Source: Eledone cirrhosa
Taxonomy: Eukaryota
NCBI GenBank assembly: GCA_964016885.1
Contig: OZ024766.1
Span: 5,146,001 to 5,210,000, forward strand
DNA length: 64,000 nt
Reading direction: 5' to 3'
Below are positions 28,764 to 39,111 of the stretch, piece by piece. A program made the position numbers and the translations under genes. Numbering within the stretch: position 1 is the stretch's first letter; each line of letters opens with the position of its first letter. The notes below the pieces were generated by a model. The model saw only the letters and a program-made list of their open reading frames with translations, searched no databases and had not been told where the DNA came from.

Positions 28764-28978
28764 TATTTCGCTGGAAGTCATGACTTTGAACCCTGTATGT
28801 GAATCTGTGGAGACCTTGGAAGGGGTCCCCATTACTGTGACAGGTGTGGCACAGTGTAAGATTATGAAAGAGAAAGACCTGTTAAACAGGGCGTGTGAGC
28901 AGTTCCTTGGCAAATCCATCGAACACATTGAAAGGGTTGTCTTGCAGACATTGGAAGGCCATTTACGAGCTATTCTTG
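28764..28978 (+). CDS. FLOT2: Flotillin-2 exon 3 (ISLEVMTLNP...QTLEGHLRAILG), SPFH domain
   Basis: tttttgtctag| acceptor and G|gtaagg donor; 215 nt. Contains GVPITVTGVAQCKIM and LEGHLRAILG. Confidence 0.97.
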
Positions 28979-29408: not shown

Positions 29409-29644
29409 ATGTCTGTCTGTCTATCTATATGTCTGTCTATTTCTTCTTAAATCTTTCATTCTTTCTTCCGATGAAGGAGTAGCGTCCGAAACATCAAGAC
29501 CCTTTTCCTACTATATCCCGTGTAAAACTAATAACATATTTCTCCATCAACCTGTCTATTTACCTGTTGATTCACCTGTTTTCTTCTCCCCACCACACTT
29601 CTACTGACCATTGCCACCATCATCTTCTTCTTCTTCTTCTTCAG

Positions 29645-29877
29645 GCACCTTGAGTGTCGAGGCTATCTATCAAGACCGAGACCAGTTTGCCCTGCTGGTG
29701 CGAGAGGTTGCCTCACCCGATGTGGGTAGGATGGGTATAGAAATCTTGAGTTTCACCATCAAAGACATTTACGATCAAGTGGAGTACCTGGCCTCTCTTG
29801 GCCGGGCTCAGACTGCCAATGTGAAGAAGGATGCTGATATTGGTGTGGCGGAGGCCGTGAGAGATGCTGGGATTAGG
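29645..29877 (+). CDS. FLOT2: Flotillin-2 exon 4 (TLSVEAIYQDRDQF...EAVRDAGIR)
   Basis: (ctt)n-tcag| acceptor and AGG|gtgagt donor; 233 nt. Contains DVGRMGIEILSFTIKD and a Tyr at position 163 (VEYL). Confidence 0.97.
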
Positions 29878-29927
29878 GTGAGTACCATAGTGCTGTTGTG
29901 TCATTTCCGTTATCATCACTGTCTCTA

Positions 29928-29967
<40 letters not shown>

Positions 29968-29969
<2 letters not shown>

Positions 29970-31240
29970 CTACCGCTTGACCGTCGTGCCTTGTCCAGCG
30001 AAAACGCTCACCAAAATGGAGCGCGCGCTCTTCCAATTCCTTTGGAAGAGGCGGGCTCCTTTGGTGAGAAGATCCATCTGCTGCCAACACCCTTCTAACG
30101 GAGGGCTGGGGATGCCGTGGCTGACGATGCGCAAACACGCGCTCAGGCTGCGGCATCTCTACGTATTCCTCACCGGACAACCGGTGTGGGCCCCGTTTGT
30201 GAGGCGAGCCTTCCCACGACTCGTCTCGCTGACCGAGCTGCAGTCGTGGGTCAAGCAGAGACCGAGGAAAATGGGCGACTGGCACATCGAATGTGCTCAG
30301 GCGCTCACAGCCCTCTGGCAGGCGGACCCGGCGATCAGTGGAGACTCCACTTCGTCATTCTATAGAGGGTTGGTCCGCAGCAAGTGCGACGACGCGCTCG
30401 GTGAAACTCTAGGCGTGGAGGAAGATGAACTGGCCAGTCTGTTCGGTAGGACCTTCCGCCCGGGACCGATGGACAACTTCCAAAAGTCCCTGGCCTGGCA
30501 GTGCTACCGAGGAGCTCTACCAGTTCGAGACAAGCTCTACAGACATGGGCGCCCGGGCAGGGACCCTGCAAAAAAGATCTGTCCGAGGTGCGTGCGAGAC
30601 GAAGAAACCGTCGCGCACGCATTCATACACTGCCCGGGCGTCACTGACCTGTGGGTCTATGTAGAACGACTATTGTCGCGGGTGGGACCAATCCAGTTGA
30701 CCACCGAGTCCATTGTCATGATCAAACCGCCACCCTCCTTCAAAAACGAAGGAGAGGCGGTTTTCCTTTGTGTGATAGCTATGGCGAAAGAGGTTGTATG
30801 GTGGACAAGGTTGAAAGGGCTGAGGTCAGACACCTTTCTCTCCGGCGAGCAACTGATTCTTTTTTTCAAATACCACTTTGGAAGAAGAATCAGGATGGAG
30901 AGAGAGGTGCTGTACCCCAGCAAGTTTTATGAAAGGTGGGTGAAAGTGGCGAGAATGGCCCCAGTGAATGGGCCTTCTCTCTATATCAGCCTGTAGGTTG
31001 AGGAAAAGGAGGAGGAGAGGAAAGGAGTACAAGCTCTTCGTACTCCTGGAGATGAGGGTTGCACATTTTTTTCGGGGGTATGTGTTACCCATATAAACTG
31101 TCTCCCTCTATTGGGGAAAATCGACTAACTTTTAAATTCCATCTGTGATAACATTTTACACGTTTTTATTGTATGTAAACTTCCCCCTTTGTATTTGTCC
31201 CCTTCTTTTGTGCCCCTGTGGCTAATAAAGAAATATATCT
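29968..31240 (+). mobile_element. 5'-truncated Tx1/L1-clade non-LTR retrotransposon: open ORF2 C-terminus (to TAG 30996) plus 3'UTR
   Basis: FQFLW...GGLGMP post-RT motif and CPRC-x8-H-x4-C (zf-RVT) motif. AATAAA at 31224; (TATC)n on both sides. Confidence 0.92.
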
Positions 31241-31251
31241 ATCTATCTATC

Positions 31252-31750
31252 TACTACCGCTTGACCGTCGTGCCTTGTCCAGCGAAAACGCTCACCAAAA
31301 TGGAGCGCGCGCTCTTCCAATTCCTTTGGAAGAGGCGGGCTCCTTTGGTGAGAAGATCCATCTGCTGCCAACACCCTTCTAACGGAGGGCTGGGGATGCC
31401 GTGGCTGACGATGCGCAAACACGCGCTCAGGCTGCGGCATCTCTACGTATTCCTCACCGGACAACCGGTGTGGGCCCCGTTCGTGAGGCGAGCCTTCCCA
31501 CGACTCGTCTCGCTGACCGAGCTGCAGTCCTGGGTCAAGCAGAGACCGAGGAAAATGGGCGACTGGCACATCGAATGTGCTCAGGCGCTCACAGCCCTCT
31601 GGCAGGCGGACCCGGCGATCAGTGGAGACTCCACTTCGTCATTCTATAGAGGGTTTTATTTTCTATAGACGTTTTTATTGTATGTAAACTTCCCCCCTTT
31701 GTATTTGTCCCCTTCTTTTGTGCCCCTGTGGCTAATAAAGAAACATATTT
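31252..31750 (+). mobile_element. Second, internally deleted tandem copy of the Tx1 fragment
   Basis: Same 5' breakpoint (tactaccgcttg). Near-identical to about 31654, then jumps to the 3' tail. Confidence 0.9.
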
Positions 31751-33026: not shown

Positions 33027-33361
33027 GAAGCGGAATGTGAGAAAGTAGGAATGGATTCGAAATATGCTGCTGATGCTAAAATTGCCGATGCTTCAAGATT
33101 GTTTCAAATGCAGAAAGCAGCTTTTGACATGGAGGTCAACACTAAGAAGGCTGAGGCCGAGCTGGCCTACGAACTTCAGGGGGCTAAAGAGAAACAAAAG
33201 ATCCGTACAGAAGAAATCGAGATCGACGTCGTTGAGCGTCGTAAACAGATCGACGTGGAAGAGAAGGAAGTGATCAGAAAAGAGAAGGAGCTGATGGGCA
33301 CAGTTAAGCGCCCAGCTGAAGCTCAGGCTTTCAAAGTTGAAATGTTAGCTCAAGGTCAAAG
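33027..33361 (+). CDS. FLOT2: Flotillin-2 exon 5 (EAECEKVGMDSKY...MLAQGQR), flotillin coiled coil
   Basis: tttcccag| acceptor and AG|gtgagg donor; 335 nt. Contains KAEAELAYELQ and VVERRKQI. Confidence 0.97.
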
Positions 33362-34616: not shown

Positions 34617-34693
34617 TATAAATATATACACACATATATACACACACATATGTTTATCTATCAACCTCTCTTTCCCTCTGTCTTTCTCATCAG

Positions 34694-34877
34694 GACTCAG
34701 ACAATGATGGCTGCCGAAGCTGAGGCTGAGAGGATCAAACTGATCGGTGAAGCCGAGGCCAGTGCCATTGAGGCAGTTGGCAACTCCCAGGCCAAGGAGA
34801 TGGTGTTGAAGTCTGAGGCTTTCAAACTATATGGCAAGGCAGCCATGTTGAACCTCATGCTGGAGACATTACCAAAG
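34694..34877 (+). CDS. FLOT2: Flotillin-2 exon 6 ([22 protein letters not shown]...MLETLPK)
   Basis: ctcatcag| acceptor and AAG|gtgagt donor; 184 nt. Contains the EA repeats. Confidence 0.96.
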
Positions 34878-37800
34878 GTGAGTCTCTTGGCGGGCGGGAG
34901 GGGGATTTTGGTGGTGAGGGTGGCTGCAGGTTGAGGCGGTTGGTAAGTCCCAGGCCAAGGAGATGGTGTTGAAGTCTGAGGCTTTCAAACTATATGGCAA
35001 GGCAGCCATGTTGAACCTCATGCTGGAGACATTACCAAAGGTGAGTCTCTTGGCAGGCGGGAGGGGGATTTTGGTGGTGAGGGTGGCTGCAGGTTGAGGC
35101 GGTTGGTAAGTCCCAGGCCAAGGAGATGGTGTTGAAGTCTGAGGCTTTCAAACTATATGGCAAGGCAGCCATGTTGAACCTCATGCTGGAGACATTACCA
35201 AAGGTGAGTCTCTTGGCGGGCGGGAGGGGGATTTTGGTGGTGAGGGTGGCTGCAGGTTGAGGCGGTTGGTAACTCCCAGGCCAAGGAGATGGTGTTGAAG
35301 TCTGAGGCTTTCAAACTATATGGCAAGGCAGCCATGTTGAACCTCATGCTGGAGACATTACCAAAGGTGAGTCTCTTGGCGGGCGGGAGGGGGATTTTGG
35401 TGGTGAGGGTGGCTGCAGGTTGAGGCGGTTGGTAACTCCCAGGCCAAGGAGATGGTGTTGAAGTCTGAGGCTTTCAAACTATATGGCAAGGCAGCCATGT
35501 TGAACCTCATGCTGGAGACATTACCAAAGGTGAGTCTCTTGGCGGGCGGGAGGGGGATTTTGGTGGTGAGGGTGGCTGCAGGTTGAGGCGGTTGGTAAGT
35601 CCCAGGCCAAGGAGATGGTGTTGAAGTCTGAGGCTTTCAAACTATATGGCAAGGCAGCCATGTTGAACCTCATGCTGGAGACATTACCAAAGGTGAGTCT
35701 CTTGGCAGGCGGGAGGGGGATTTTGGTGGTGAGGGTGGCTGCAGGTTGAGGCGGTTGGTAAGTCCCAGGCCAAGGAGATGGTGTTGAAGTCTGAGGCTTT
35801 CAAACTATATGGCAAGGCAGCCATGTTGAACCTCATGCTGGAGACATTACCAAAGGTGAGTCTCTTGGCGGGCGGGAGGGGGATTTTGGTGGTGAGGGTG
35901 GCTGCAGGTTGAGGCGGTTGGTAACTCCCAGGCCAAGGAGATGGTGTTGAAGTCTGAGGCTTTCAAACTATATGGCAAGGCAGCCATGTTGAACCTCATG
36001 CTGGAGACATTACCAAAGGTGAGTCTCTTGGCGGGCGGGAGGGGGATTTTGGTGGTGAGGGTGGCTGCAGGTTGAGGCGGTTGGTAACTCCCAGGCCAAG
36101 GAGATGGTGTTGAAGTCTGAGGCTTTCAAACTATATGGCAAGGCAGCCATGTTGAACCTCATGCTGGAGACATTACCAAAGGTGAGTCTCTTGGCGGGCG
36201 GGAGGGGGATTTTGGTGGTGAGGGTGGCTGCAGGTTGAGGCGGTTGGTAACTCCCAGGCCAAGGAGATGGTGTTGAAGTCTGAGGCTTTCAAACTATATG
36301 GCAAGGCAGCCATGTTGAACCTCATGCTGGAGACATTACCAAAGGTGAGTCTCTTGGCGGGCGGGAGGGGGATTTTGGTGGTGAGGGTGGCTGCAGGTTG
36401 AGGCGGTTGGTAACTCCCAGGCCAAGGAGATGGTGTTGAAGTCTGAGGCTTTCAAACTATATGGCAAGGCAGCCATGTTGAACCTCATGCTGGAGACATT
36501 ACCAAAGGTGAGTCTCTTGGCGGGCGGGAGGGGGATTTTGGTGGTGAGGGTGGCTGCAGGTTGAGGCGGTTGGTAAGTCCCAGGCCAAGGAGATGGTGTT
36601 GAAGTCTGAGGCTTTCAAACTATATGGCAAGGCAGCCATGTTGAACCTCATGCTGGAGACATTACCAAAGGTGAGTCTCTTGGCGGGCGGGAGGGGGATT
36701 TTGGTGGTGAGGGTGGCTGCAGGTTGAGGCGGTTGGTAAGTCCCAGGCCAAGGAGATGGTGTTGAAGTCTGAGGCTTTCAAACTATATGGCAAGGCAGCC
36801 ATGTTGAACCTCATGCTGGAGACATTACCAAAGGTGAGTCTCTTGGCAGGCGGGAGGGGGATTTTGGTGGTGAGGGTGGCTGCAGGTTGAGGCGGTTGGT
36901 AAGTCCCAGGCCAAGGAGATGGTGTTGAAGTCTGAGGCTTTCAAACTATATGGCAAGGCAGCCATGTTGAACCTCATGCTGGAGACATTACCAAAGGTGA
37001 GTCTCTTGGCGGGCGGGAGGGGGATTTTGGTGGTGAGGGTGGCTGCAGGTTGAGGCGGTTGGTAAGTCCCAGGCCAAGGAGATGGTGTTGAAGTCTGAGG
37101 CTTTCAAACTATATGGCAAGGCAGCCATGTTGAACCTCATGCTGGAGACATTACCAAAGGTGAGTCTCTTGGCGGGCGGGAGGGGGATTTTGGTGGTGAG
37201 GGTGGCTGCAGGTTGAGGCGGTTGGTAACTCCCAGGCCAAGGAGATGGTGTTGAAGTCTGAGGCTTTCAAACTATATGGCAAGGCAGCCATGTTGAACCT
37301 CATGCTGGAGACATTACCAAAGGTGAGTCTCTTGGCGGGCGGGAGGGGGATTTTGGTGGTGAGGGTGGCTGCAGGTTGAGGCGGTTGGTAACTCCCAGGC
37401 CAAGGAGATGGTGTTGAAGTCTGAGGCTTTCAAACTATATGGCAAGGCAGCCATGTTGAACCTCATGCTGGAGACATTACCAAAGGTGAGTCTCTTGGCG
37501 GGCGGGAGGGGGATTTTGGTGGTGAGGGTGGCTGCAGGTTGAGGCGGTTGGTAACTCCCAGGCCAAGGAGATGGTGTTGAAGTCTGAGGCTTTCAAACTA
37601 TATGGCAAGGCAGCCATGTTGAACCTCATGCTGGAGACATTACCAAAGGTGAGTCTCTTGGCGGGCGGGAGGGGGATTTTGGTGGTGAGGGTGGCTGCAG
37701 GTTGAGGCGGTTGGTAACTCCCAGGCCAAGGAGATGGTGTTGAAGTCTGAGGCTTTCAAACTATATGGCAAGGCAGCCATGTTGAACCTCATGCTGGAGA

Positions 37801-38512
37801 CATTACCAAAGGTGAGTCTCTTGGCGGGCGGGAGGGGGATTTTGGTGGTGAGGGTGGCTGCAGGTTGAGGCGGTTGGTAACTCCCAGGCCAAGGAGATGG
37901 TGTTGAAGTCTGAGGCTTTCAAACTATATGGCAAGGCAGCCATGTTGAACCTCATGCTGGAGACATTACCAAAGGTGAGTCTCTTGGCGGGCGGGAGGGG
38001 GATTTTGGTGGTGAGGGTGGCTGCAGGTTGAGGCGGTTGGTAAGTCCCAGGCCAAGGAGATGGTGTTGAAGTCTGAGGCTTTCAAACTATATGGCAAGGC
38101 AGCCATGTTGAACCTCATGCTGGAGACATTACCAAAGGTGAGTCTCTTGGCAGGCGGGAGGGGGATTTTGGTGGTGAGGGTGGCTGCAGGTTGAGGCGGT
38201 TGGTAAGTCCCAGGCCAAGGAGATGGTGTTGAAGTCTGAGGCTTTCAAACTATATGGCAAGGCAGCCATGTTGAACCTCATGCTGGAGACATTACCAAAG
38301 GTGAGTCTCTTGGCGGGCGGGAGGGGGATTTTGGTGGCTGCAGGTTGAGGCGGTTGGTAAGTCCCAGGCCAAGGAGATGGTGTTGAAGTCTGAGGCTTTC
38401 AAACTATATGGCAAGGCAGCCATGTTGAACCTCATTCTGGAGACATTACCAAAGGTGAGTCTCTTGGCGGGCGGGAGGGGGATTTTGGTGGTGAGGGTGG
38501 CTGCAGGTTGAG
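34768..38512 (+). repeat. 163-bp tandem array: 3' part of FLOT2 exon 6 plus donor plus intron start (parent and 22 copies)
   Basis: Donor GT at 34878, 35041 and on to 38455; one 9-nt deletion before the last copy. Confidence 0.97.
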
Positions 38513-39008
38513 GATTTTGGTGGTGAGGGTGGCTGCAGGGTGGGGATTTTGGTGGTGAGGGTGGCTGCAGGGTGGGGATTTTGGTGGAGAGGGTGGCTGC
38601 AGGGTGGGGATTTTGGTGGTGAGGGTGGCTGCAGGGTGGGGATTTTGGTGGTGAGGGTGGCTGCAGGGTGGGGATTTTGGTGGTGAGTGTGAGGCAAGCT
38701 AGAGGTGAGGGTGGGGTGGGGAATTTTGGTGGTGAGGGTGGGCTGTGAGGTGGGGGTGGGGATTTTTGGTGGTGAGTGTCAGGCAAGCTAGAGGTGGGGG
38801 TGGGGTGGGGAATTTTGGTGGTGAGTGTGAGGCAAGCTAGGAGCGAGGGTGGCTTCACCTCATGCTGGAGACATTACCAAAGGTGAGCCAGGAATTGAGG
38901 GGCTGAGGTGGTGGCTGTGGGGGTGTGGGGTATGGACTTCGGGTGAGAGGCCTGTGGGGTAGGGATTTTGGGCTTGGGTGAGGGAAGCTAGAGGTGAGGG
39001 TGGCTTCA
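38480..39008 (+). repeat. G-rich about 32-bp minisatellite plus one further partial exon-6 end and donor (GT at 38883)
   Basis: ggtggggattttggtggtgagggtggctgcag units; cctcatgctggagacattaccaaaggtgag at 38858-38887. Confidence 0.85.
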
Positions 39009-39009
39009 T

Positions 39010-39111
39010 TTTAATAATAATAATAATTTCTACTTTTGGCACAAGGCCAGCAATTATACCAGTGTATTACTGGTACTTTATTTTATCGAACCCGTAAGGA
39101 TGAAAGGCAAA
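39010..39111 (-). mobile_element. 5'-truncated SINE family B
   Basis: Family B tail with (AAT)n. Confidence 0.8.

Follow-up and report, generated by a model that had tools for sequence, protein, structure and literature searches.

A single-locus minisatellite across the exon 6 donor of flotillin-2 in Eledone cirrhosa, with additional splice donors that are likely silent

Background

Minisatellites that span an exon-intron boundary and carry silent splice donors are already known, as the amphioxus mirages and the human F7 and LMNB2 repeats. Among the mirage minisatellites described by Ebner et al. 2010 (PMC3087553) are those of BflGb9 (157 bp, at the 3' boundary of exon 2), BflGb6 (3-6 units of 150-160 bp) and Adh3 (10-72 bp). 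According to the same source, the mirages of 150-160 bp left splicing undisturbed in RT-PCR, haplotype length variation was demonstrated, and the exonisation of units is stated as a hypothesis or model. In intron 7 of human F7 a 37-bp VNTR is found in 5-9 units, of which the most upstream donor is used (Borensztajn et al. 2006, PMC1557585). The Introduction of that paper lists LMNB2 (100 bp, 10-15 copies), intron 4 of PDGFA (81 bp, 16-18 copies), intron 13 of CBS (31 bp, 15-20 copies) and the interferon-inducible gene 6-16, with 25 pseudo-sites. By this account only the authentic first donor is used in F7, LMNB2 and PDGFA, and the two nearest pseudo-donors are used besides the real one in 6-16 and CBS.

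The array analysed here lies in a flotillin-2 gene, within a window (the whole stretch of DNA analysed) of 64,000 nucleotides. As far as the mirages are described in the source cited, it resembles them in the duplicated exon-intron boundary, the nearly equal unit length, the presence of AG and GT signals, the homogenised units and splicing that was normal in the RNA studied. The side copied, exon end plus donor, is the same as in BflGb9. The flotillin-2 array differs in host (mollusc versus amphioxus), in copy number (23, versus one duplicate in BflGb9 and 3-6 units in BflGb6) and in unit identity (98-100% versus 81-100%). As in the published F7 VNTR, the first unit lies across the exon-intron boundary and identical donors follow down the intron. 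In contrast, the exon bases per unit are 4 in F7 and 110 in flotillin-2, hence the flotillin-2 units are open 36-codon stretches with internal AGs. Long units and 10-25 repeated donors are shared with LMNB2, PDGFA, CBS and 6-16, as these are summarised in PMC1557585. The most-upstream-donor rule was tested, in the work cited, in F7 minigenes in mammalian cells, and would extend to the octopod case by analogy.

Dscam-type arrays likewise line up many exon-like copies with a donor at the end of each. In Dscam-type clusters and whole-exon duplications, every copy has an acceptor of its own, and the copies diverge under selection; the flotillin-2 array differs in having no copied acceptor and near-identical units. 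Literature searches found no report on cephalopod minisatellites or intron sizes.

Host gene and structure of the array

The host gene encodes flotillin-2, a member of the SPFH family. All exons are present and the frame is open. Exon by exon, identity to the Argonauta flotillin-2-like protein (P0002) is 92-97% in tblastn, and exons 1-8 sum to 427 codons, the length of P0002. The top PDB match is human flotillin-2 (E 4.6e-12). Exon 6, the parent of the repeat, is preceded by a phase-2 intron and ends in phase 0. The six introns measured span 666-16918 nt.

The array (Table 1) has in TRF a period of 163, 23.0 copies and 98% matches. Its first unit overlaps exon 6, which makes it a head-to-tail repeat starting across the exon-intron boundary. 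The first-pass annotation had described a 163-bp unit, made of the exon 6 end, its donor and the intron start, repeated 22 more times. The sequence agrees with the composition (110 nt of exon end with the AAG/GTGAGT donor, and 53 nt of intron start, a split ambiguous by the 6-nt overlap) and with the number of copies, but one of these, at 38301-38454, measures 154 bp because of a 9-bp deletion in the intron part. Parent and copies carry 23 identical AAG/GTGAGT donors, and the repeated splice signal AAGGTGAGT is found 23 times within 34690-38520. All of the matches (at least 28) obtained in a DNA search of the host genome fall at one locus, and no relative was found in 464 kb. The array is locus-born, and is not a dispersed element.

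Table 1. Features of the flotillin-2 locus, in window coordinates
Feature	Position	Strand	Basis or remark
Coding exon 5	33027..33361	+	tblastn; the spliced contig continues from it into exon 6
Coding exon 6 of 8, 184 nt	34694..34877	+	tblastn with P0002; boundaries agree with the spliced contig
Minisatellite: the parent and 22 units, 21 of 163 bp and one of 154 bp	34768..38513	+	TRF, unit comparison; single locus
Microhomology TTGAGG, 6 bp, exon side	34768..34773	+	parent matches unit back to 34768, diverges at 34767
Authentic first donor AAG/GTGAGT	34875..34883	+	spliced contig matches 34692-34879 with 0 differing letters
G-rich tract, four runs of at least three G, G-quadruplex-like, repeated in units	34892..34920	+	G4Hunter-type score up to 1.88
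Candidate acceptor ctgcag, intron-derived, weak	34924..34929	+	9/22 pyrimidines, 11 G, 9 AG-free nt upstream
In-frame TGA, 18 codons into the intron	34932..34934	+	encountered when splicing takes a later donor but no new acceptor
New consensus donor TTG/GTAAGT	34940..34948	+	GGC>GGT plus AAC>AAG; 11/22 units
Candidate acceptor cccag (76-nt intron, 87-nt exon)	34949..34953	+	sequence scan
32-bp minisatellite, 6.7 copies, immediately following the array and built from its G-rich intron motif	38478..38691	+	TRF
Microhomology TTGAGG, 6 bp, intron side	38508..38513	+	intron positions 54-59 past the last donor; 59-nt match to unit
24th partial copy, isolated, 31 nt, of which 26 nt are exon end and the rest is GTGAG (donor AAG/GTGAGC)	38857..38887	+	sequence match
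Coding exon 7	42149..42292	+	tblastn; joined straight to exon 6 in the spliced contig
Coding exon 8, including stop	46723..46764	+	completes 427 codons

The array in sequencing reads

A 193-nt cyclic contig that "goes back 163" has been found in runs X1, X2 and X4, at depths of 33.3, 60.8 and 42.2, respectively. No contig of the unique 5' half of exon 6 is found in these three genomic-type runs of one sample. Since the head-to-tail loop reaches 33-61x while the unique exon half has no contig, the array is real and not an assembler artefact. The same runs contain a 62-nt cyclic contig for the adjacent 32-bp minisatellite. The depth ratio of the two loops is 4.1-4.5, versus 5.4 (19.5/3.6) predicted by the assembly; contig depth being a rough guide only, this suggests many copies, with an average that may lie a little below 23. 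The gap could come from a shorter second allele or from noise in the one DNA sample. A true locus with one or few copies, inflated by the assembler, deserves next to no credit: the units are nearly identical, and the runs showing the loop may come from the assembled sample, but both the loop depths and their ratio speak for many copies, and variant units stand in ordered blocks.

Transcripts

Run X3, the kind of which is not on record, has been judged of RNA type only from its spliced contig. This contig (1231 nt, depth 25), the only one placed from that run, joins exons 5, 6 and 7 directly, leaves exon 6 unbroken, and carries parent alleles throughout exon 6, with zero array sequence. Identical donors are indistinguishable in it, and parent alleles are what it shows. 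X3 comes from sample S2, and the three runs featuring the array from sample S1, so that the animal behind X3 may carry another allele. Past the end of exon 6, exon 7 reads GTTGCT, the module start GCCAAG or GTTGAGGCGG, and the intron GTGAGTCTC; no array junctions, copy alleles or intron-start sequence were found among X3 contigs, which at depth 25 in one run represent abundant forms only, as assembled contigs drop rare ones. Uncovered parts in contig runs prove nothing alone, and weight is placed on the contig crossing an intron. Normal 5-6-7 splicing is seen in 1/1 spliced contig, and describes the dominant form in one sample. The transcript check suggested at first pass thus returned only the exon 6-7 junction and no copies, though from shallow data. 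A retrocopy was considered as source of the spliced contig and rejected, because DNA and protein searches of the host genome revealed no retrocopy or second flotillin-2 locus.

Candidate acceptors and additional donors

Each unit contains 10 AGs in frame (9 in AAC units), and not two as previously noted; the two named, ctgcag/GTT and cccag/GCC, are the only in-frame CAGs. Their predicted products stand as first described, a 111-nt exon after a 52-nt intron for the former and an 87-nt exon after a 76-nt intron for the latter, both stop-free with phase-0 ends. In one unit the putative introns shrink to 43 and 67 nt. Copies are open and in frame because a coding tail was copied, and in-frame NAGs are automatic for the same reason; five exons of the gene have 3.0-7.7 NAG and 0-1.6 CAG codons per 36 codons. 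The cccag site is a Gln codon also found in the parent exon (34788-34790), which ignores it. Both candidate acceptors are G-rich (9-10/22 pyrimidines, 4-16 AG-free nt upstream) and lack a real polypyrimidine tract, as anticipated, whereas the six acceptors of the gene examined have 12-21/22 pyrimidines and at least 45 AG-free nt upstream, in a comparison of sequence features. The authentic exon 6 acceptor is absent from the duplicated unit, and the 76-nt intron, in the AAC unit that was tested, contains no yUnAy branch motif. Exon 7 itself has a poor acceptor too (12/22 pyrimidines, no T), so this spliceosome can use odd acceptors.

The TTG/GTAAGT donor, overlooked at first pass, sits 13 nt past the ctgcag acceptor, inside the 111-nt exon. 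The gene's own donors include CTG/GTAAGT and TTG/GTAAGG. The TGA met by read-through lies two exons before the last exon. Recursive splicing at CAG/GTTGAG was also considered; the regenerated donor would be AAG/GTTGAG, far from consensus.

Unit variants and the protein module

Full-length units differ by at most two positions, and can be assigned to three types arranged in blocks. The variants already listed have all been found: relative to the parent, copies carry GCA>GCG and GGC>GGT, 11 of them read AAC and the other 11 AAG, and the last copy has ATG>ATT. An intron-side G>A change at unit position 15, present in 4/22 units, had been missed, as had the 24th partial copy. The differences had been called mostly third-position. 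All four substitutions are (P = 0.012), but two alter the residue (N>K, M>I). Two of four synonymous is expected with P = 0.21 without selection, and the three shared substitutions are no more than 17 nt away from the junction (P = 0.003, random placement). Third-position changes as a sign of selection were rejected, because half are non-synonymous and three cluster at the junction. GCA>GCG abolishes a CAG that lies out of frame immediately after the ctgcag site.

Homologues have been collected as the 8 hits of one search and the best 120 of 857 of another, three being shared; other cephalopods were compared as proteins. All 125 have one module with zero indels in it, and a second module was retrieved in 0/125. 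The K encoded by the AAG variant is the residue of 105/125. The module corresponds to human residues 330/338-366, and crosses the published CC1/CC2 boundary (351/352). The published flotillin cage is closed, with 44 subunits in which flotillin-2 alternates with flotillin-1, and the module leads from wall helix to roof helix. Since it straddles the CC1/CC2 boundary, the module is not a plain coiled-coil repeat, and the length-variable coiled coil of the first-pass annotation is not sustained. An AlphaFold2 monomer of P0002 (46 sequences; pLDDT 68.7, pTM 0.34) features one helix at 309-377 and no CC1/CC2 bend, hence the boundary rests on the published numbers.

Interpretation

The locus is best explained (probability about 0.82) as a single-locus intronic minisatellite across the exon 6 donor, in which the 22 extra donors are likely silent and the usual 427-residue protein is made. 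An ordinary intronic repeat is likely because the sole spliced transcript skips all copies; with silent donors, the array would leave with intron 6. By the human F7 model, splicing would select the most upstream donor, which pairs with the strong acceptor of exon 6, and the copies would be donors without a usable acceptor. Rare transcripts using a later donor would meet the stop 18 codons into the intron and probably be degraded. The reading of the copies as 22 decoy donors, offered earlier as an alternative, fits the evidence. Weighing against the preferred reading are the third-position bias (1.2%), the poor exon 7 acceptor, the use of pseudo-donors in CBS and 6-16, the mammalian basis of the F7 rule, the origin of the transcript data (contigs from one run of another sample), the loss of the out-of-frame CAG through GCA>GCG, the predominance of dispersed families among the neighbouring arrays, and the AlphaFold2 model lacking the bend.

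It is rather unlikely that the array leaks, the first donor dominating and a minority of transcripts using near pseudo-donors or the GTAAGT donor, or retaining intron 6. As their early stop would have such transcripts degraded, copy number would tune the flotillin-2 level and no new proteins would result. The 23 identical strong donors and 11 new consensus ones, the early TGA, the weak exon 7 acceptor and the behaviour reported for human 6-16 and CBS would suit this; against it, intron-start sequence is missing from X3 contigs, as qualified above, and F7, LMNB2 and PDGFA are described as faithful to their first donor. Far less probable is the use of ctgcag or cccag as acceptors, by which 1 to 22 copies of 87 or 111 nt would be spliced in, yielding a longer flotillin-2. 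Both exons are in frame and stop-free, donors are intact, 87-111 nt is a workable exon size, and the AAG variant gives the K prevailing among homologues. Exonisation of such units is moreover the model proposed for mirages (PMC3087553). However, no such form is found in the sole spliced contig, NAG codons are in frame as a matter of course once a coding tail is copied, and cccag goes unused in the parent exon. The introns required are very short and G-rich, with weak acceptors, compared with those of the gene; in half of the units the consensus donor would truncate the 111-nt exon to 13 nt; homologues are uniformly single-module, and in the closed cage, where flotillin-1 alternates, the module links wall and roof helices. 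The suggestion that splicing could add 0-22 modules is accordingly not upheld. Very little credence is given also to a young minisatellite turning into exons, with 29- or 37-residue copies of the wall-to-roof segment spliced in in some tissue and array length setting the range of cage variants open to an animal. If true, it would be the first working case, among the literature searched, in which a mirage gave rise to new exons as proposed; spliced-in copies would show a minisatellite turning into exons, and one subunit varying within a cage whose helices are otherwise of fixed length.

Most likely the locus matters little, as one more boundary-spanning minisatellite, this time from a cephalopod, in which exon sequence takes up much of the unit (110/163 bp) and the copies are many. 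With 22 identical and 11 further consensus donors, it provides a natural test in a mollusc of the rule that the most upstream donor wins. The array is also a trap for gene predictors, because the match of each unit to flotillin-2, over 39 residues, is about 90%.

Origin and genomic surroundings

Two TTGAGG hexamers that lie 163 bp apart, the first within the exon and the second in the G-rich start of the intron, may have delimited an initial tandem duplication, which plausibly arose through slippage or microhomology-mediated repair. Growth and homogenisation would afterwards be due to unequal exchange of multi-unit blocks. The array can persist because neither the coding exon nor its donor is damaged by a duplication across the donor. 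The G-rich intron motif seeded both the 32-bp array and the 24th fragment. G4Hunter-type absolute scores of at least 1.5 are found in 0.9% of 25-nt windows elsewhere in the 64,000-nt stretch, and the 4 units carrying the position-15 G>A change have their first G run broken. One unit folded as RNA, in a model that excludes G-quadruplexes, showed no special structure (z = -0.04).

Tandem repeats, a background that favours the preferred reading, make up 58% of the bases in the surrounding 464 kb, which host 89 arrays with a period of at least 30 and at least 5 copies, 9 of which have a period of at least 100 and at least 10 copies. As 75 of the 89 belong to dispersed families, the raw count overstates the background rate of arrays born at their locus. 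The other 14 have no relative inside the 464 kb. By a crude pattern, a donor-like motif is found in two of these, the flotillin-2 array and a 46-bp simple-sequence array (L025:6477).

Host gene and structure of the array

The flotillin-2 gene is made of eight coding exons, modelled on the Argonauta flotillin-2-like protein P0002, whose 427 residues equal the sum of their codons. For the exon beneath the array, identity is 95% with Argonauta hians flotillin-2-like and 92% with flotillin-2 of Octopus sinensis. A protein search of the 3.0 Gb genome retrieved this locus and two weak matches on another contig (C19:13150770-13164628, 49-52% identity), which are probably exons of a paralogue, flotillin-1. 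The database model of the O. sinensis protein (P0003, 369 aa) lacks the exon 4 region and carries an unrelated stretch behind exon 3; a gap in the annotation or the assembly seems to be the cause.

Coding exons and tandem arrays (plain coordinates are window positions; L numbers are pieces of the surrounding 464 kb)
Feature	Position	Remarks
Coding exon 1	9433-9481	P0002 guide
Coding exon 2	26400-26481	P0002 guide
Coding exon 3	28764-28978	P0002 guide
Coding exon 4	29645-29877	P0002 guide
Coding exon 5	33027-33361	P0002 guide
Coding exon 6	34694-34877	P0002 guide; parent of array
Coding exon 7	42149-42292	P0002 guide
Coding exon 8	46723-46764	P0002 guide
Flotillin-2 array	34768-38513	period 163, 23.0 copies, 98% matches (TRF)
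65-bp unit array	19720-23308	
65-bp unit array	L006:4893	
65-bp unit array	L022:9209	
65-bp unit array	L037:9841	
65-bp unit array	L045:2880	
Complex unit, no relative in 464 kb	L033:8715	145 bp x 10
Complex unit, no relative in 464 kb	L035:8318	101 bp x 18
Complex unit, no relative in 464 kb	L038:2185	67 bp x 13

The unit joins 110 nt of exon 6 end to 53 nt of intron start, and the donor AAG|GTGAGT occurs 23 times, in the parent and in 22 copies, as the first-pass annotation had counted. Twenty-one copies measure 163 bp, and one is short by 9 bp in the intron part. Full-length units vary at just two sites, AAG/AAC (11 units each) and G/A at intron position 15 (A in 4 units), and unit types are arranged in blocks, a pattern expected if unequal exchange moved more than one unit in each event. 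The first copy differs from the parent by GCA>GCG, GGC>GGT and AAC>AAG, the last by ATG>ATT. A DNA search of the genome gave 28 matches, a lower bound, and all of them fall at this locus. Codon 34794-34796 of exon 6 (module position 10) stands for K; the residue is E in 123 of 125 homologues, Argonauta and O. sinensis among them. K is present in the parent, in all copies and in the spliced contig described below, and is therefore either older than the array or spread with it.

Contigs of four sequencing runs were compared with 34650-34965. Three of them (X1, X2 and X4) come from one sample, comprise about 1.4 Gb of contigs apiece and are genomic judging by content. In every one a 193-nt contig returns on itself after 163 bases, a closed loop of one unit, at depths of 33.3, 60.8 and 42.2, and the unique 5' half of exon 6 is without a contig. 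The adjoining 32-bp loop has depths of 7.48, 15 and 10.3. The resulting ratios, 4.45, 4.05 and 4.10, may be set beside the 19.5/3.6 = 5.4 predicted by the assembly, bearing in mind that contig depth is not copy number. We read this as many copies, of roughly the number assembled, seen in data that did not come through the same assembler, though not from an independent animal, as the sample may be the assembled one. One or a few copies multiplied by misassembly are hard to reconcile with loops in three runs, and this is the least probable of the explanations considered.

Splicing across the array

The fourth run (X3, 88 Mb of contigs, a different sample, kind of run off record) has a contig of 1231 nt, depth 25, matching 34692-34879 with zero mismatches. 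Its loose ends correspond to 33330-33359, the end of exon 5, and 42151-42180, the start of exon 7; it is thus the product of splicing, and its exon 6, which carries the parent's alleles, runs directly into exon 7. Over 34650-34965 no X3 contig shows a module junction, either a joint back into the exon or a 52-nt skip, and none lies on the intron start. This is one run, contigs drop rare forms, and the X3 animal may or may not carry the array; within these bounds the proposed addition of modules by splicing is not borne out.

Two acceptors per copy had been put forward, ctgcag|GTT (111-nt exon, 52-nt intron) and cccag|GCC (87-nt exon, 76-nt intron). In fact units contain 10 in-frame AGs (9 in AAC units), of which two are CAG. 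When the end of a coding exon in phase 0 is copied, the parental frame stays open in the copy, and each CAG, GAG or AAG codon there is an in-frame AG; five exons of the gene have 3.0-7.7 NAG and 0-1.6 CAG codons per 36. The cccag|GCC site is a Gln codon also in the parent, where the transcript reads through it, and ctgcag, derived from the intron, would fall in frame by chance one time in three. The apparent quality of the cassettes is therefore deceptive. At -25 to -4 the two sites contain 9-10 pyrimidines and 9-11 G, against 19-21 pyrimidines in five real acceptors and 12 in that of exon 7. Upstream of them 4-16 nt are free of AG, where real acceptors have at least 45 nt, and no yUnAy, the branch consensus, was found within the 76-nt intron of the one AAC unit examined. 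The exon 7 acceptor (42110-42148) is C/A-rich and preceded by a 77-bp x 36 array (39395-42121).

In 11 of 22 units GGT and AAG together create a donor missed by the first-pass annotation, TTG|GTAAGT, 13 nt behind ctgcag and no farther from the consensus than CTG|GTAAGT and TTG|GTAAGG, two donors of the gene itself. A 111-nt exon would there tend to shrink to a frame-shifting 13 nt; in the same units this donor lies 11 nt upstream of the first base of the 87-nt exon. Use of a later donor without a new acceptor would lead 18 codons into the intron to a stop at 34932, two exons before the end. RNAs with such early stops are subject to decay, which would presumably remove stray transcripts of this kind.

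The array is a real feature of a known kind, a minisatellite spanning an exon-intron boundary; neither this locus nor such arrays in cephalopods were found in the literature searched, which included few subscription journals. Minisatellites whose first unit crosses the boundary are described by Borensztajn et al. 2006 (PMC1557585) for F7 (37 bp, 5-9 units), LMNB2 (100 bp, 10-15 units) and PDGFA (81 bp, 16-18 units). In F7 the most upstream donor alone is used, later ones being functional and not competing; in CBS and 6-16 two pseudo-sites are used besides. Amphioxus 'mirages' are similar (Ebner et al. 2010, PMC3087553): 157 bp are duplicated at an exon's 3' boundary in BflGb9, units of 150-160 bp occur 3-6 times in BflGb6, RT-PCR suggests normal splicing, and exonisation of units is proposed as a model.

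We hold the flotillin-2 array to be silent, with a probability of about 0.8; the F7 rule of donor choice would apply in Eledone cirrhosa, and the array would be neutral. Against silence speaks the exon 7 acceptor, which has no T at -25 to -4 and is nevertheless used in the X3 transcript. Leaky use of copies, with decay of the products, would accord with the CBS and 6-16 precedents and with the stop at 34932; it is unlikely. A working cassette array, for which open frames and intact donors could be adduced, is much less likely still, given the weak acceptors.

The duplicated segment corresponds to human flotillin-2 residues 330-366 (111 nt) or 338-366 (87 nt). A review places flotillin CC1 at 161-351 and CC2 from 352 (PMC11775717), and cryo-EM reports describe a closed dome of 22 flotillin-1 and 22 flotillin-2 alternating chains, with CC1 helices of 189 residues as wall and converging CC2 helices as roof (PMC13000311; bioRxiv 10.1101/2024.05.09.593390). 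Each module would hence repeat the wall-to-roof junction, rather than lengthen a plain coiled coil as had been supposed. The AlphaFold monomer of P0002, at pTM 0.34, does not show the CC1/CC2 bend. The 125 homologues (8 from a first search and the best 120 of 857 from a second, three shared) have exactly one module match each, with no insertion or deletion in it.

Origin of the array and repeat background

Behind the last donor, 59 nt of intron still agree with the unit, while the match to the exon begins at unit position 54; six bases, TTGAGG, are thus common to both sides of the unit junction. Duplication between two TTGAGG hexamers 163 bp apart would yield exactly the observed unit, and we infer this mechanism. 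At its start the intron is rich in G: it contains four runs of at least 3 G, and the G4Hunter-type score reaches 1.88, a value approached by less than 1% of windows elsewhere. The same motif builds a 32-bp array directly behind the 163-bp one, and a 31-nt exon-end piece recurs at 38857; the site was thus duplicated more than once, and G-quadruplexes might, at a guess, have driven it. The region behind the array (38478-39012) is a patchwork of this motif, including looser 49/89-bp repeats, and the 31-nt fragment (38857-38887) has the donor AAG|GTGAGC. Three junction-near substitutions sit in the first 17 of 110 nt (P = 0.003 under random placement). Such clustering fits breakpoint errors, or exchange with the parent not reaching the homology edge, and would not be expected from selection on the peptide.

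The tandem-repeat background is extreme. Across a 464 kb stretch that contains the window, TRF arrays take up 58% of bases, and 89 arrays have a period of at least 30 and at least 5 copies, nine of them a period of at least 100 and at least 10 copies. Relatives at more than 2 kb distance were found for 75 of the 89, as though mobile elements had carried these satellites; 14, including the flotillin-2 array, have none within the 464 kb. A crude pattern detected no donor-like motif in the three other arrays with complex units listed in the table. One 65-bp unit is arrayed in 13-60 copies at five places, and 72-, 61-, 59-, 84- and 48/49-bp units are likewise recurrent. Intron 4 (29878-31700) has long open frames, one running on from exon 4 (29608-30993), and a stretch present twice, at 30099-30362 and 31383-31646, with near-identical translations; the translated sequence appears to resemble non-LTR retrotransposon protein, and related pieces occur at 6680-7243. 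Intron 1 hosts a (TAG)n tract with some 388 units (18122-19284).
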